Positions 437-51,863 of a stretch of 64,000 nt of DNA are shown piece after piece. This stretch comes from Longimicrobiales bacterium (GTDB lineage Bacteria; Gemmatimonadota; Gemmatimonadetes; Longimicrobiales; Gaopeijiaceae), in NCBI GenBank assembly GCA_965219445.1, contig CBDCNQ010000002.1:416001-480000 (forward strand), read 5' to 3'. The first letter of the stretch is position 1. The number at the start of each line of letters is the position of its first letter. Position numbers and translations under genes: made by a program. The notes beneath the pieces are model-generated. The model searched no databases. It saw nothing but the letters and a program-made list of their open reading frames with translations, and was not told the origin of the DNA.

Positions 437-880
437 TCAATCCAGGCGACTCCCCCTATCCGCCGTCAGGGGTTCACTCCACAACGGTGGCTTGTTGCGT
501 GCTTCCCACAGGTCGCCCCGCCGCTTCAGGTGCTCGGCTTCTTGGGTTTGGGTGAGGTTAGCCTGTTGTAGGTTGTCGTCTATCTCCCACAACTGGCGGT
601 CGGTGTCATTGAGGTGGAGATAGATGGCCGGAATTTCCTCCCAGCCGAGCCGTTGGGCTGCACGTAGGCGGTGATATCCCGCCACGAGGACCACACCACC
701 CTCATCGCCACCACATACGGAGATGGGCTGTTGTAGCCCGATGGCATCCATTGATGCAGCTAGCGCTACGACCCTGTCTTCGTCCAGCGGGCGTAGCCGG
801 GTCAGCACCATCACGTCATCCACGTACACCTTGGAGAGTATGACCTCTCGCTCGGCCTCCACCTTATCCTCGAAGGCTTC
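437..880 (-). pseudogene. ParB/Srx N-terminal domain protein, 5' end cut off by IS256 copy 1
   Basis: LAASMDAIGLQQPISV...LVAGYHRLRAAQRLGW...EIDDNLQ is a ParB-N motif; the RBS and first codons lie at 48793-48837. Confidence 0.8.
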
Positions 881-1041
881 GAGCTAGGATCAAAGGCATC
901 ATAGGGGCATGGCGACGGCTACCGGTACCGATCAGCAGCTAAGCAGCCCGAAGACGAAGAGGCGTTCTCCTCCGGGAACGGGTGCGCGTTCATCATTGTT
1001 CGCGCAAGGAAGCAACCCACCTATCCAAGAGGAGAACGCCG

Positions 1042-2097
1042 ATGGAGAGATATATCGGACTCGACGCACACGCGTCGAGCTGCACGCTGGGGATTGTAGG
1101 CCCCAGCGGCAAGCGCTTGGGCTCGCAGGTGGTGGAAACGAACGCGCGGGCGCTGATCGAGGTGCTGCGAGGGATTCCGAGGAACCGGCACTTGTGCCTG
1201 GAAGAAGGGACGCTGTCGGGGTGGCTGTACGAGGTGCTGGAGCCGCACGTGGAGGAGCTAACGGTGGCGGGGGTCGGCAAGAGCCGGGGCCCGAAGACCG
1301 ACAAGCTGGACGCGTTTGCCCTGGCGGAGAAGCTGCGGATCGGATCACTGGAGACGAGGGTCTACAAGAACCGGGGCCAGTTCAGGCGGCTGGGGGAACG
1401 GGCGAAGAGCTACGACTTCCTGGTCGGCGACACGGTGCGGGTGAAGAACCGGCTCAAGAGCGTGCTGCGCTCGAGAGGAGTGGCCTACGGCGCGGGGCGC
1501 TCGGTCTACTTGAAGCGCGACCGGGAGGAGTGGTTGGCCAAGCTGCCGGAAGCGAGCAGGACGACGGCCGGGTTGCTGTACGAGGAGCACGACGCACTCG
1601 TGGCATTGAGGGCGAAGGCCGAGAAGGCGTTGCTGGCGGAAGCACGCAAGCATCGAGAGTGGCATGTGCTGAAGACGTGCCCGGGTCTGGGTCCGATCCG
1701 GACGGCGGAGCTCCTGCCGGTGGTGGTGACGCCGTACCGGTTCCAGAGCCGGAGCAGATTCTGGGCGTACTGCGGACTGGGCGTGGTGATGCGGAGCTCG
1801 TCGGACTGGGTGCGGGGTCCGGGTGGGCGGTGGGTAAGGGAACCGGTACAGCAGACGCGGGGGCTGAATCGGAACTTCAACCACACGCTGAAGCGTGTGT
1901 TCAAGGGCGCAGCGACGACGGTGATCGGTCGGGCCGAAAACGAACCCTTGTACCGCCACTACGAGCGACTCCTGGAGGGGGGCACGAAGCCGAATCTGGC
2001 GAAGCTGACGATCGCGCGTCAGCTCGCCTCGATCGTGCTAGCGGTGTGGCGCACGGGCGAAGCGTACGACCCCAAGAGACTGGAAGCGACGGAGTAA
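1042..2097 (+). CDS. IS110-family DEDD recombinase/transposase
   Basis: YIGLD, LEEG, KTDKLDA (DEDD RuvC-like); CPGLGP and GLGVVMRSSS in the C-terminal domain; RBS GAGGAG before ATG 1042. Confidence 0.93.
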   Translation: MERYIGLDAHASSCTLGIVGPSGKRLGSQVVETNARALIEVLRGIPRNRHLCLEEGTLSGWLYEVLEPHVEELTVAGVGKSRGPKTDKLDAFALAEKLRIGSLETRVYKNRGQFRRLGERAKSYDFLVGDTVRVKNRLKSVLRSRGVAYGAGRSVYLKRDREEWLAKLPEASRTTAGLLYEEHDALVALRAKAEKALLAEARKHREWHVLKTCPGLGPIRTAELLPVVVTPYRFQSRSRFWAYCGLGVVMRSSSDWVRGPGGRWVREPVQQTRGLNRNFNHTLKRVFKGAATTVIGRAENEPLYRHYERLLEGGTKPNLAKLTIARQLASIVLAVWRTGEAYDPKRLEATE

Positions 2098-2164
2098 ACC
2101 GGCCTGGGATCGGCGAGCGTGGGGTCGAAAGCGGTCACAACATGGGGTCCGACGAAACGGAAGC

Positions 2165-2305
2165 GAACCGGTTACAGGGGACAGCATCCATACACACCGT
2201 GGGCCGGGGCAGAGAGCCCAAGCCCCCACTCAAAGGCTATGCACCCCTGGAAGAGCCGAACGAAGCGATGGGCCACAGAGTCCCAGATAGAAGGATGGTT
2301 CCCGC
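2165..2305 (+). ncRNA. Predicted seekRNA/bridge RNA of the IS1111-type element (boundaries approximate)
   Basis: Stem CAGGGG(2175-2180)/CCCCTG(2244-2249) encloses TACACACC (2191-2198) and TCAAAGG (2230-2236), which match the two strands of the target; ATAGAAGG (2287-2294) matches the donor end. Confidence 0.75.
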
Positions 2306-2464
2306 TCCAGAGCGGAGAACGCGACGGCTGTGAACGTCTTCCGGACTGCGATGCGGACCCTGCGAGCGCACCCCTCCCCACCCTGAGTCGTCGACCGGGC
2401 AATCCAAACCATGCGGACGCCGACGGTCAAAAAATGAGCCGACGGCGCGTGGGGAAGGTGCGTC

Positions 2465-2470
2465 TTGACC
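2465..2470 (+). promoter_or_regulatory. -35 box of the IS1111 circle-junction promoter
   Basis: On circularisation TTGACC is followed by exactly 17 nt (GCCAGCCCCATAGAAGG) and then CATCAT (897-902). Confidence 0.7.
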
Positions 2471-2583
2471 GCCAGCCCCATAGAAGGGTGTGTAAAAAAA
2501 GAGGCGACGTACCTTTCCGCTAGGTAGTAAGAAGTTAACCAGCGAATCCCGGGTGAGCGCCCGGGGGAAAGGAACGATGCCTC

Positions 2584-3828
2584 GTGAGGAAGAATATGGT
2601 GGGACCCGAGAGTGAGTCCAGCACGCCGACGTGGGAGTGCTTGGAAGCGCTGGTTCGTGAGAAGGCCCAGGAGATGGTCCAGCGGATTCTGGAGGAGGAA
2701 GTGACGGAGTTGCTCGGCCGGGAGAAGTCGGAGCGGAAGACGGTCGTAGACCCGGCGCCAGGCTACCGCAACGGCTACGGCAAGGCTCGGCGGCTGGCGA
2801 TGAGCTCGGGCACGATCATGCTCCGACGGCCCCGGGTTCGAGGCATTGAGGAGCGGTTCGAGAGTCGGGTGTTGCCGTTGTTCGCACGACGGACGAAGGA
2901 GGTGGGTGCTCTGCTTCCGGAGCTGTATCTGCACGGGCTGGCGGAGGGAGACTTCGAGCTGGCGATGCGGGGCCTGCTGGGCGAGGGGGCCCCGTTGTCG
3001 AAGTCTTCGATTTGGCGGCTGCGGGCGGGATGGACAAGGAAATTCGAGGAATGGTCGAAGCGCTCGCTGGCCGACCGTGAGGTCGTCTACGTCTGGGCGG
3101 ACGGGATCTACGTGAAGGCGGGGCTCGAGCGGGACAAGGCAGCGCTGCTGGTGGTTCTCGGTGCGATGCGAGATGGTACGAAGGAGGTGTTGGCCCTGAG
3201 ATCGGGCTACCGAGAGTCGGTCGAGTCCTGGTCCGAGGTGTTGCGGGATCTGAAGGCACGCGGCATCGAGGCGCCCCGGCTTTTGATGGCGGACGGCAAC
3301 GCGGCGATCTGGGGCGCAGTACGGCAGGTATGGCCTGAGGCGGGCGAGCAACGGTGCTGGAACCACAAGATGAGGAACGTGCTGGACCGGCTGCCTCAGC
3401 GGGAGCAGAGCGAGGCGAAGGACCTTCTCAGGACCGTGGTCTACGCACCGAGGCGGTCCGAGGCGCTGAAGGCCCGTGAGGCGTTCGCCAGGCGCTACAG
3501 ACCGTGGTATCCGAAGGCGGTGGATGTACTCGAGGACGACTGGGAGCGGATGGTGGCGTTCTACGACTTCCCCGAGGACCACTGGAAGCATCTACGCACG
3601 ACGAACGTGGTCGAGAGCCCCTTTGCCGCAGTACGGCTCAGGACAACGGCGGCGAAGCGCTTCAAGCGGGTCGAGAGCGCTACGGCGCTGATCTGGAAGC
3701 TGCTCTTGGTGGCGGAGAAGCGCTTCAGAAGGCTCGACGCTCCTCACCTCCTCAAGGACGTATTTGAAGGAAGAAAGTTCGAAGACGGAAAGCCCGTCTC
3801 AACCCAACAGCGGAAAAACGCCGCCTGA
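2584..3828 (+). CDS. IS256-family (Mutator-type DDE) transposase
   Basis: RNGYG, WADGIY, MADGN, QRCWNHK, LRTTNVVES motifs. Confidence 0.95.
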   Translation: MRKNMVGPESESSTPTWECLEALVREKAQEMVQRILEEEVTELLGREKSERKTVVDPAPGYRNGYGKARRLAMSSGTIMLRRPRVRGIEERFESRVLPLFARRTKEVGALLPELYLHGLAEGDFELAMRGLLGEGAPLSKSSIWRLRAGWTRKFEEWSKRSLADREVVYVWADGIYVKAGLERDKAALLVVLGAMRDGTKEVLALRSGYRESVESWSEVLRDLKARGIEAPRLLMADGNAAIWGAVRQVWPEAGEQRCWNHKMRNVLDRLPQREQSEAKDLLRTVVYAPRRSEALKAREAFARRYRPWYPKAVDVLEDDWERMVAFYDFPEDHWKHLRTTNVVESPFAAVRLRTTAAKRFKRVESATALIWKLLLVAEKRFRRLDAPHLLKDVFEGRKFEDGKPVSTQQRKNAA

Positions 3829-3858
3829 AACATTTACACACCTATTGACCCAACCTCC

Positions 3859-4360
3859 ACTGTTTGTCGCGGCCTGCTTCCTCGCCACATGCGAGGGCGA
3901 CGTCGGACCTACCGGACCAGCGGGGGCAGCGGGGCCAGCGGGGCCGACCGGGGACCCGGGAATTGAAAACTTCACCGCGGACCTGAACGAGGCGAATGTG
4001 ATGGTGCCTACCGGGAGCACCGCAACCGGCACCGCGAGCTTCTCCGTCGTCGGGCCAACTCTTCTGTACAGCATCGATGTCACGGGCCTCGCCGACGTGA
4101 CGGTGGTCCATATTCACGGTCCCGCCGCCGTGGGTGTCAATGCGGGCGTCATTCAGGACATCTGTAATGCCGGCGATGCGCCGCCGTGCAACACCACCAC
4201 GCCGCTTACCGGGGTCCTCGTGGCGGGCGCGGCCGCGCGCTCGAAGATCCCGTTCGATTCGCTGGTGGTTTTGATGCAGAACGGGAACGCCTACGTCAAC
4301 GTCCACACGACCGCAAACCCCGGAGGCGACATCCGAGGGCAGATCGCCACGGTTCCGTAA
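3859..4360 (+). pseudogene. CHRD-domain lipoprotein with short collagen-like Gly-X-Y tract; start of signal peptide removed by IS256
   Basis: HIHGP...AYVNVHT..NPGGDIRGQI is the CHRD signature; GPTGPAGAAGPAGPTGDPG tract; missing 5' part is at 51816-51852 (-). Confidence 0.85.
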
Positions 4361-48792: not shown

Positions 48793-48837
48793 GAGGAGGC
48801 GTTAGTCAGTGAAGTACTTCACTACGGGAGAAGCCTT
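48793..48837 (+). pseudogene. Detached RBS and first codons of the ParB-like gene
   Basis: GAGGAGG, then GTG 48809 reading VKYFTTGEA; continues in frame at 872 (-) as F-EDKVEAERE. Confidence 0.85.
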
Positions 48838-48867
48838 GGAGGTTGGGTCAATAGGTGTGTAAATGTT

Positions 48868-50112
48868 TCAGGCGGCGTTTTTCCGCTGTTGGGTTGAGAC
48901 GGGCTTTCCGTCTTCGAACTTTCTTCCTTCAAATACGTCCTTGAGGAGGTGAGGAGCGTCGAGCCTTCTGAAGCGCTTCTCCGCCACCAAGAGCAGCTTC
49001 CAGATCAGCGCCGTAGCGCTCTCGACCCGCTTGAAGCGCTTCGCCGCCGTTGTCCTGAGCCGTACTGCGGCAAAGGGGCTCTCGACCACGTTCGTCGTGC
49101 GTAGATGCTTCCAGTGGTCCTCGGGGAAGTCGTAGAACGCCACCATCCGCTCCCAGTCGTCCTCGAGTACATCCACCGCCTTCGGATACCACGGTCTGTA
49201 GCGCCTGGCGAACGCCTCACGGGCCTTCAGCGCCTCGGACCGCCTCGGTGCGTAGACCACGGTCCTGAGAAGGTCCTTCGCCTCGCTCTGCTCCCGCTGA
49301 GGCAGCCGGTCCAGCACGTTCCTCATCTTGTGGTTCCAGCACCGTTGCTCGCCCGCCTCAGGCCATACCTGCCGTACTGCGCCCCAGATCGCCGCGTTGC
49401 CGTCCGCCATCAAAAGCCGGGGCGCCTCGATGCCGCGTGCCTTCAGATCCCGCAACACCTCGGACCAGGACTCGACCGACTCTCGGTAGCCCGATCTCAG
49501 GGCCAACACCTCCTTCGTACCATCTCGCATCGCACCGAGAACCACCAGCAGCGCTGCCTTGTCCCGCTCGAGCCCCGCCTTCACGTAGATCCCGTCCGCC
49601 CAGACGTAGACGACCTCACGGTCGGCCAGCGAGCGCTTCGACCATTCCTCGAATTTCCTTGTCCATCCCGCCCGCAGCCGCCAAATCGAAGACTTCGACA
49701 ACGGGGCCCCCTCGCCCAGCAGGCCCCGCATCGCCAGCTCGAAGTCTCCCTCCGCCAGCCCGTGCAGATACAGCTCCGGAAGCAGAGCACCCACCTCCTT
49801 CGTCCGTCGTGCGAACAACGGCAACACCCGACTCTCGAACCGCTCCTCAATGCCTCGAACCCGGGGCCGTCGGAGCATGATCGTGCCCGAGCTCATCGCC
49901 AGCCGCCGAGCCTTGCCGTAGCCGTTGCGGTAGCCTGGCGCCGGGTCTACGACCGTCTTCCGCTCCGACTTCTCCCGGCCGAGCAACTCCGTCACTTCCT
50001 CCTCCAGAATCCGCTGGACCATCTCCTGGGCCTTCTCACGAACCAGCGCTTCCAAGCACTCCCACGTCGGCGTGCTGGACTCACTCTCGGGTCCCACCAT
50101 ATTCTTCCTCAC
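48868..50112 (-). CDS. IS256-family transposase
   Basis: Protein identical to 2584-3828. Confidence 0.95.
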   Translation of the reverse strand: MRKNMVGPESESSTPTWECLEALVREKAQEMVQRILEEEVTELLGREKSERKTVVDPAPGYRNGYGKARRLAMSSGTIMLRRPRVRGIEERFESRVLPLFARRTKEVGALLPELYLHGLAEGDFELAMRGLLGEGAPLSKSSIWRLRAGWTRKFEEWSKRSLADREVVYVWADGIYVKAGLERDKAALLVVLGAMRDGTKEVLALRSGYRESVESWSEVLRDLKARGIEAPRLLMADGNAAIWGAVRQVWPEAGEQRCWNHKMRNVLDRLPQREQSEAKDLLRTVVYAPRRSEALKAREAFARRYRPWYPKAVDVLEDDWERMVAFYDFPEDHWKHLRTTNVVESPFAAVRLRTTAAKRFKRVESATALIWKLLLVAEKRFRRLDAPHLLKDVFEGRKFEDGKPVSTQQRKNAA

Positions 50113-50390
50113 GAGGCATCGTTCCTTTCCCCCGGGCGCTCACCCGGGATTCGCTGGTTAACTTCTTACTACCTAGCGGAAAGGTACGTCGCCTCTTTTT
50201 TTACACACCCTTCTATGGGGCTGGCGGTCAAGACGCACCTTCCCCACGCGCCGTCGGCTCATTTTTTGACCGTCGGCGTCCGCATGGTTTGGATTGCCCG
50301 GTCGACGACTCAGGGTGGGGAGGGGTGCGCTCGCAGGGTCCGCATCGCAGTCCGGAAGACGTTCACAGCCGTCGCGTTCTCCGCTCTGGA

Positions 50391-50531
50391 GCGGGAACCA
50401 TCCTTCTATCTGGGACTCTGTGGCCCATCGCTTCGTTCGGCTCTTCCAGGGGTGCATAGCCTTTGAGTGGGGGCTTGGGCTCTCTGCCCCGGCCCACGGT
50501 GTGTATGGATGCTGTCCCCTGTAACCGGTTC
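50391..50531 (-). ncRNA. Predicted seekRNA/bridge RNA (copy 2)
   Basis: Mirror of 2165-2305. Confidence 0.75.
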
Positions 50532-50598
50532 GCTTCCGTTTCGTCGGACCCCATGTTGTGACCGCTTTCGACCCCACGCTCGCCGATCCCAGGCCGGT

Positions 50599-51654
50599 TT
50601 ACTCCGTCGCTTCCAGTCTCTTGGGGTCGTACGCTTCGCCCGTGCGCCACACCGCTAGCACGATCGAGGCGAGCTGACGCGCGATCGTCAGCTTCGCCAG
50701 ATTCGGCTTCGTGCCCCCCTCCAGGAGTCGCTCGTAGTGGCGGTACAAGGGCTCGTCCTCGGCCCGACCGATCACCGTCGTCGCTGCGCCCTTGAACACA
50801 CGCTTCAGCGTGTGGTTGAAGTTCCGATTCAGCCCCCGCGTCTGCTGTACCGGTTCCCTTACCCACCGCCCACCCGGACCCCGCACCCAGTCCGACGAGC
50901 TCCGCATCACGACGCCCAGTCCGCAGTACGCCCAGAACCTGCTCCGGCTCTGGAACCGGTACGGCGTCACCACCACCGGCAGGAGCTCCGCCGTCCGGAT
51001 CGGACCCAGACCCGGGCACGTCTTCAGCACATGCCACTCTCGATGCTTGCGTGCTTCCGCCAGCAACGCCTTCTCGGCCTTCGCCCTCAATGCCACGAGT
51101 GCGTCGTGCTCCTCGTACAGCAACCCGGCCGTCGTCCTGCTCGCTTCCGGCAGCTTGGCCAACCACTCCTCCCGGTCGCGCTTTAAGTAGACCGAGCGCC
51201 CCGCGCCGTAGGCCACTCCTCTCGAGCGCAGCACGCTCTTGAGCCGGTTCTTCACCCGCACCGTGTCGCCGACCAAGAAGTCGTAGCTCTTCGCCCGTTC
51301 CCCCAGCCGCCTGAACTGGCCCCGGTTCTTGTAGACCGTCGTCTCCAGTGATCCGATCCGCAGCTTCTCCGCCAGGGCAAACGCGTCCAGCTTGTCGGTC
51401 TTCGGGCCCCGGCTCTTGCCGACCCCCGCCACCGTCAGCTCCTCCACGTGCGGCTTCAGCACCTCGTACAGCCACCCCGACAGCGTCCCTTCTTCCAGGC
51501 ACAAGTGCCGGTTCCTCGGAATCCCTCGCAGCACCTCGATCAGCGCCCGCGCGTTCGTTTCCACCACCTGCGAGCCCAAGCGCTTGCCGCTGGGGCCTAC
51601 AATCCCCAGCGTGCAGCTCGACGCGTGTGCGTCGAGTCCGATATATCTCTCCAT
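50599..51654 (-). CDS. IS110-family DEDD recombinase/transposase
   Basis: As copy 1 with three amino-acid differences (LEPH/LKPH, ETRV/ETTV, AENE/AEDE). Confidence 0.93.
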   Translation of the reverse strand: MERYIGLDAHASSCTLGIVGPSGKRLGSQVVETNARALIEVLRGIPRNRHLCLEEGTLSGWLYEVLKPHVEELTVAGVGKSRGPKTDKLDAFALAEKLRIGSLETTVYKNRGQFRRLGERAKSYDFLVGDTVRVKNRLKSVLRSRGVAYGAGRSVYLKRDREEWLAKLPEASRTTAGLLYEEHDALVALRAKAEKALLAEARKHREWHVLKTCPGLGPIRTAELLPVVVTPYRFQSRSRFWAYCGLGVVMRSSSDWVRGPGGRWVREPVQQTRGLNRNFNHTLKRVFKGAATTVIGRAEDEPLYRHYERLLEGGTKPNLAKLTIARQLASIVLAVWRTGEAYDPKRLEATE

Positions 51655-51815
51655 CGGCGTTCTCCTCTTGGATAGGTGGGTTGCTTCCTTGCGCGAACAA
51701 TGATGAACGCGCACCCGTTCCCGGAGGAGAACGCCTCTTCGTCTTCGGGCTGCTTAGCTGCTGATCGGTACCGGTAGCCGTCGCCATGCCCCTATGATGC
51801 CTTTGATCCTAGCTC

Positions 51816-51863
51816 CAAACAGTGCCACGTATCGAACAAAATAGGGTCTCATGAGACCTCCTC
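51816..51863 (-). pseudogene. Detached RBS and signal-peptide start of the CHRD lipoprotein
   Basis: GAGGAGG, ATG 51852 reading MRPYFVRYVALF; continues in frame at 3867 as VAACFLATC. Confidence 0.85.

Follow-up and report, generated by a model that had tools for sequence, protein, structure and literature searches.

An IS110-superfamily element in the left inverted repeats of an IS256 lineage, with a predicted guide RNA that matches its target

The targeting of transposon ends is already known from IS4321/IS5075 and IS1383; IS1384, the host of IS1383, is presumably a member of the IS5 family. In the available text of PMC8269217 and PMC11208160, IS4321 and IS5075, which belong to the IS1111 group, target the terminal repeats of Tn21-family transposons, and for IS1383 the reported targets are the inverted repeats of IS1384 (Muller, Lauf and Hermann 2001, as cited in PMC11208160). 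Here, an element of the same superfamily was characterised within the left inverted repeat (IRL) of an IS256 element in a window of 64,000 nucleotides, the whole stretch of DNA analysed (G000:C2:416001-480000, G000 being the genome of the window). The comparisons described below point, with a probability of roughly 0.92, to a recombinase system with an RNA guide programmed for the left inverted repeat of a single IS256 lineage.

In the window, where features lie on the plus strand unless stated otherwise, the outer part of the IRL (positions 1-15, the left target half, with its AG core at 894-895) is located at 881-895, the inserted element of IS1111-type layout at 896-2486 with one core copy included, and the inner part of the IRL (positions 16-25, carrying the TGTAAA motif) at 2487-2496. 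An intact IS256-family transposase gene of 414 aa follows at 2584-3828, and the IS256 right inverted repeat at 3833-3857 (minus strand) is uninterrupted. The inserted element encodes a DEDD recombinase of 351 aa at 1042-2097 and, downstream of it, a predicted two-loop seek/bridge RNA at 2176-2318. Deletion of 897-2487 restored GAGCTAGGATCAAAGGGTGTGTAAA, a repeat of 25 bp that is identical to the right repeat at 20 of 25 positions; together with the Pfam and NCBIfam calls for the genes, this confirmed the claim of an earlier note that an IS110-type element lies inside an IS256 IRL. The note had also reported the same junctions for a second copy at 50209-51799 on the minus strand (50210-51800 with redrawn ends), and these were found as described, within a second IS256::IS110 composite at 48839-51815 (minus strand). 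The two composites differ at 10 positions, every one of them inside the IS110 gene.

The two window composites are inverted relative to each other and carry swapped target-site duplications. The copy at 872-880 does not match the right flank of its own composite and agrees at 8 of 9 positions with the right flank of the second (48830-48838), and the copy at 3858-3866 matches the left flank of the second (51816-51824) at 9 of 9, which implies either a 48-kb inversion between the composites or a misjoin. A search of relatives for the inversion returned a dispersed repeat only. Among metagenome contigs, which were checked for four sequencing runs (X1, X5, X8, and X14), those of X5 and X8 continue beyond 880 into DNA absent from 500-4200, which fits a swap. 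Eleven of the 19 complete composites in G000 lack a duplication of their own, and several of these represent reciprocal or three-way swaps. A ParB-like gene at 437-862 (minus strand) starts 18 bp from the IRL and is cut off from its upstream region. In the RNA runs, 0.05-0.07 of words were contained.

The host transposase scored above cut-off for both Transposase_mut (PF00872) and NF033543 (IS256), and the host has terminal repeats with TGTAAA and a duplication of 8-9 bp. The product of the inserted gene scored above the Pfam cut-offs for DEDD_Tnp_IS110 (PF01548) and Transposase_20 (PF02371); its NCBIfam NF033542 score was 112.8, under the cut-off of 140. E55, D87, and D90 are present in all 38 relatives compared, as is S253, and D8 is kept in 35 (the other three being gaps). 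S253 aligns with the SG region of IS621 and is the putative catalytic serine, and position 254 is S in 28, A in 9, and G in 1 of the relatives. Insertion is site- and orientation-specific and without added duplication, as in the IS110 superfamily, and a structured non-coding RNA with target and donor guides was predicted from the sequence alone. The non-coding sequence, with about 390 bp downstream of the gene versus about 145 bp upstream, is IS1111-like. The element is a member of the IS110 superfamily that functions like an IS1111 element. It was not placed firmly in the IS1111 group because the imperfect sub-terminal inverted repeats at 902-914 and 2470-2482 (minus strand) are weak (best gapless match 10/13, spaced 7 and 3 bp from the ends if these are drawn at 895 and 2485, whereas the group has near-perfect repeats of 11-13 bp at these distances), the SG motif is absent (GLGVVMRSSSD instead of GL-P----S(T)G), the NCBIfam score is below cut-off, and the recombinase tree (FastTree, 38 proteins, all from this clade) contains no IS1111 references. 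In that tree, all proteins that target IS256 ends, including L131, form one clade with a support of 1.0 within relatives that have other targets. Named elements had less than 28% identity to the recombinase among the matches listed, and comparison with the PDB gave weak matches only (IS621, E 0.019). A sub-threshold match to a TIGR-Tas RNA-guided endonuclease model was also recorded for residues 123-287 (57.6 bits, cut-off 100).

The earlier note had removed 897-2487 with AAGG as the core; the rebuilt site stands, and the fourth base of AAGG had to be dropped from the core. Five copies in G219 have the left joint ATCAAAG/GCATC and the right joint ATAGAAG/AGTGTG, and an empty allele ATCAAAGAGTGTG was present at 4 of the 80 metagenome loci surveyed for empty alleles. 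These observations rule out AAGG, because they indicate that the base after AAG is derived from the element on the left and from the target on the right. The letters common across relatives shrink, as judged by eye, to AG. The element is best drawn at 896-2486 with an AG core, its boundary being slidable within the shared AAG, and the rebuilt site is unchanged. At the position of this AG the right repeat reads TA, which explains why only the left one is used.

The exact IRL was searched in 300 other genomes of the same order using the reversed sequence as a control, and filled junctions were searched in 260 genomes of the same family. G000 contains 24 near-identical left ends of the IS110 element and one diverged remnant, and the IRL stub GAG[CGT]TAGGATCAAAG(G) precedes 23 of the 24. 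The remaining IRL, GTGTGTAAA, follows 21 of its 24 complete right ends, and the others comprise one that leads via GTG into a group II intron, one off-target end, and one internal duplication joint. None of the 29 intact right repeats in G000 is interrupted. No exact empty IRL was found in this genome, and its five empty IS256 left ends are all altered at or near the site. Elsewhere, the exact rebuilt IRL was found empty in 7 of the 300 genomes (reversed control, 0), leading to an IS256 gene about 104 bases on where the locus shows it, and contigs in which the stub is joined directly to 2484 were found for X1 (4), X8 (6), and X14 (2), with none for X5 among the matches listed. Filled junctions occurred in 7 of the 260 family genomes, in four genera. 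Off-target copies were present in G000, G219, and G255, in addition to one junction in G332. Universal saturation of IRLs was rejected, since canonical empties persist in G331 (14 of 15 among the matches listed, of 43), G332 (5), G255 (1), and G007 (1). An empty near-site at C1:205760, which is not at an IS end, has the left half and GGGTGTG in common with the target.

The specialisation on IS256 ends that the earlier note had proposed is supported for left ends by these counts, by empty/filled pairs, by diverged hosts, and by the guides. Tabulation of the flanks of all IS110 copies in the genome, which the note had suggested, placed 23 of 24 at the same IRL base, so most copies do not sit in unrelated targets, and empty left ends with the rebuilt IRL do exist in relatives (7 of 300 genomes and three of the four runs).

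A single ancient insertion, followed by spread of the IS256::IS110 composite through IS256 transposase or gene conversion and without repeated targeting, could in principle give the same arrangement, and several observations agree with it. By hand count, 8 of the 19 complete composites are still flanked by an intact 8-9 bp duplication of their own; an unusual right junction is common to five G219 copies, which have few differing sites; and, in the available text of PMC7780238, a junction of an IS256-family element that retains just 14 bp of the left end remains able to integrate in vitro, although more slowly. In addition, the 22 full copies in G000 represent 21 haplotypes, and 326 of 528 site pairs fail the four-gamete test, a mosaicism that may have come from conversion or from mixing of strains in the assembly. 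However, nearly identical IS110 copies occupy very different IS256 hosts, which argues that the insertions were independent: five copies in G332 are 0-3 bases apart, whereas 287 differences separate two of their hosts, and the hosts in G000 range from 100% down to about 80% identity. In the pairs G267/G332 and G195/G105, a site that is empty in one genome is filled in the other, the flanks being identical at 100/100 bases; in a third pair (G007/G000 C5:1030810), the empty allele is a variant and the filled copy is one base short at the left joint. The guides match the site, and a natural IRL allele that also exists empty accounts for the shared G219 junction, which was rejected as proof that composites move. 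An ancient composite as the sole cause is therefore largely refuted and very unlikely, and composite movement may have been an additional route.

The 390-bp region after the gene contains three words that correspond to the target or to the element. The right-target guide TACACACC at 2191-2198 is complementary to the top strand of IRL positions 16-23, the left-target guide TCAAAGG at 2230-2236 equals IRL positions 10-16 and pairs with the bottom strand, and the left-donor guide ATAGAAGG at 2287-2294 equals the right end of the element; no right-donor guide could be securely assigned in the aligned fold. The top-strand-complementary guide comes ahead of the bottom-strand guide, and the available text of PMC11187229 describes the former as preceding in IS1111-type seekRNAs. 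An alignment of 21 relatives, drawn from 28 guide types parsed, gave a fold that has a target loop and a donor loop and shows compensatory change in 15 of 32 predicted pairs; folding of the single non-coding region was without signal (z -0.99), the alignment alone giving one, and an Rfam search of the RNA region returned no match. Guide pairs L085, L101, and L111, which were without flanks and mis-parsed, were left out of all counts.

Agreement between guides and flanks was compared with shuffled pairings, whose significance is overstated because the guide types are kin. The left guide matched the left flank at 5.43 of 7 positions (shuffled 3.21±0.28, 0/10000, 15 types). For the right guide the match was weak in a fixed register (3.29 versus 2.62, 81/10000, 18 types) and reached 5.53 of 8 when a one-base shift was allowed (3.53±0.31, 0/10000, 15 types). 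The off-target copies in G000, G219, and G255 are all in the shifted register, and the single off-target copy in G000 matches the left guide at 9 of 9 positions. L131, a sister with 95% identity, has altered guides that fit the right repeat, which it abuts, and its right flank is unrelated.

Recognition of the repeat by protein, or by bound IS256 transposase, with the RNA matches being incidental, would fit the finding that 2.9% of resampled non-coding regions contain the left 7-nt word by itself, and the RNA itself is a prediction. Yet both target words appeared together in only 1 of 20000 resampled sequences, each occupies its own arm of a single loop, and in relatives the words change along with the flanks (CCAAGAGG to CCAACAGG in L112 and L125), which makes protein-only targeting highly improbable. 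An assembly artefact of two repeats, which would fit a metagenome-type assembly in which 11 of 19 composites have swapped flanks and some copies are frameshifted, can practically be dismissed, as the same junctions occur in six other genomes and in independent runs (X1 record 500-908, X14 record 893-2516, and X5 record 2277-2506).

Several further observations concern the RNA and its relatives. Compared with most copies and with the main contigs from the four runs, the window copy carries an additional A in the predicted RNA at position 2251. At G000 C5:1612735-1613245 and at L184, the last 460-510 bp of the IS110 element, guide RNA included, are tandemly duplicated. Left-end remnants of a related IS110 type (G000 C2:661602, L134, and L142) have a different flank, GGGATAGG, which matches guides of relatives with 60-80% identity. 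A relative in G005 (L005, L009, L012, L015, and L018), with 40% identity and 15 copies, has guides that match its flanks, which we take to resemble integron attC sites.

For RNA-guided targeting, the preferred reading, the following course may be proposed by analogy with IS621, ISEc11, and their relatives. The element would leave as a circle whose joined ends would form a TTGACC-17-CATCAT promoter driving the recombinase and the RNA; the putative -35 box TTGACC lies at 2465-2470 and, in the computed circle junction, 17 bp from CATCAT at 897-902. The complex would then integrate the circle by recombination at the AG core of any empty IRL and spare the right repeat with its TA, and every new IS256 copy would provide a fresh landing site outside host genes. 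The insertions observed are at one base of the repeat and in one orientation. No circle junction was found in the genome or among the joints listed from run contigs.

According to the available text of PMC7780238, the ISCth4 transposase binds repeat bases 1-12 and 14-25 through separate sites. Insertion after base 15 shifts most of the inner binding site 1.6 kb away and leaves 16 bp, and the split repeat probably lowers the mobility of IS256, a more limited effect than the immobilisation that the earlier note had thought probable; split hosts may still move on the 16-bp stub. Release of the host may be rare because excision by IS621 in vitro is about 2000-fold weaker than insertion, as given in the available text of PMC13626964.

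Escape of IS256 from the element is suggested, tentatively, by the pattern of altered empty ends. Every empty IRL seen was altered in three of the seven invaded genomes, namely G000 (5), G219 (11), and G105 (1), and in the latter two all were changed at the AG core; the empties of G219 comprise nine with AAATG and two with AATAA, versus five filled ends. Intact empties are kept in the other four (G007, G255, G331, and G332). Variants were not accepted as proof of escape, as they also occur in genomes in which no filled junction was found (G195, G272, G347, G116, G309, and G404), and they may drift freely because the left and right repeats already differ at those positions. The main IS256 type in G000 has three altered empty ends (ATCAGAAGG, ATCGAAGG, and ATCAAGG) that resemble excision footprints, and imprecise excision may itself create immune ends; consensus errors could produce the same three. 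The two G-bearing altered ends were absent from the metagenome contigs, and no end of altered length was found, all 55 IS-like ends among the 80 metagenome loci being normal. An arms race within one genome, in which the element would fill each left end that its guides can read, IS256 copies changed at the AG core would be immune and go on spreading, and the element would respond with guide edits (G219 and G255, and the sister at the right repeat in G267), is a speculative reading that is more doubtful than not.

Other mobile elements were noted around the copies. At G000 C4:1171669-1169770, a 1.9-kb group II intron lies in an IRL four bases inside the right joint of IS110; it encodes a YADD reverse transcriptase and has 14 copies in G000, mostly after GTG, and a similar-looking insertion is present in an empty IRL at L167 of G219. 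In several genomes the IS256 right repeat is followed by one and the same flank, AAACCCGGG (G000 C2:600543 and C3:149204; L036, L045, L182, and L131). This flank resembles an IS3-type end, and a further layer of nesting is possible there. IS256 insertions with 100/100 identical flanks in different species (G000 C2:603203/L186 in G331 and G000 C5:1030810/L172 in G007), one of them shared between different genera, suggest recent horizontal transfer of islands. The composites at G000 C4:110844 and C4:1173281 have a left flank of 9 identical bases, which may be a circle spacer that was carried over.

No described IS110 element in IS256 ends was found among the listed matches from the open literature, with subscription journals, ISfinder, TnPedia, and bioRxiv supplements as places that may hold one, and the case is absent from the readable supplements of PMC11208160 and PMC11187229. 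What seems new here is the use of IS256 left ends as a target and the extent of filling in G000. IS256 left ends would join the few mobile-element ends that serve as targets of guide RNAs, with a recombinase clade remote from those studied and bridge RNAs that appear naturally reprogrammed on one scaffold. Since guide and target alleles are naturally paired, mismatch tolerance, core use, and escape are open to direct testing, and if a split end slows IS256, the element would be a brake on another IS.

With regard to described systems, as far as their available texts go, IS1383 is likewise an IS110-family element aimed specifically at the inverted repeat of a different simple IS; compared by title rather than sequence, the present element differs in that its host belongs to the IS256 family and only the left repeat is used. 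IS4321/IS5075 share with it a fixed site in a mobile-element terminal repeat, occasional look-alike off-targets, and a 'safe harbour' logic, whereas their host is a Tn3-family transposon with 38-bp repeats rather than IS256. The IS256 host resembles ISCth4 and its family in its 8-9 bp duplications, TGTAAA sub-terminal motif, and imperfect repeats (PMC7780238), and differs in that most G000 copies have an insertion within the left repeat. ISEc21, of the IS110 group, also has a guide RNA directed at another IS, but its RNA is upstream, its guide order is reversed, and its target is the coding sequence of an IS3-family transposase (PMC11187229). The seekRNA elements ISEc11, ISKpn4, and ISPa11 (PMC11187229) have in common with the present element a long downstream non-coding region, a top-strand-complementary guide that comes first, overlapping guides, and natural reprogramming, and the present element differs from them in its sub-terminal repeats, which match at just 10 of 13 positions, and in having GLG-----SSSD in place of GL-P----SG.
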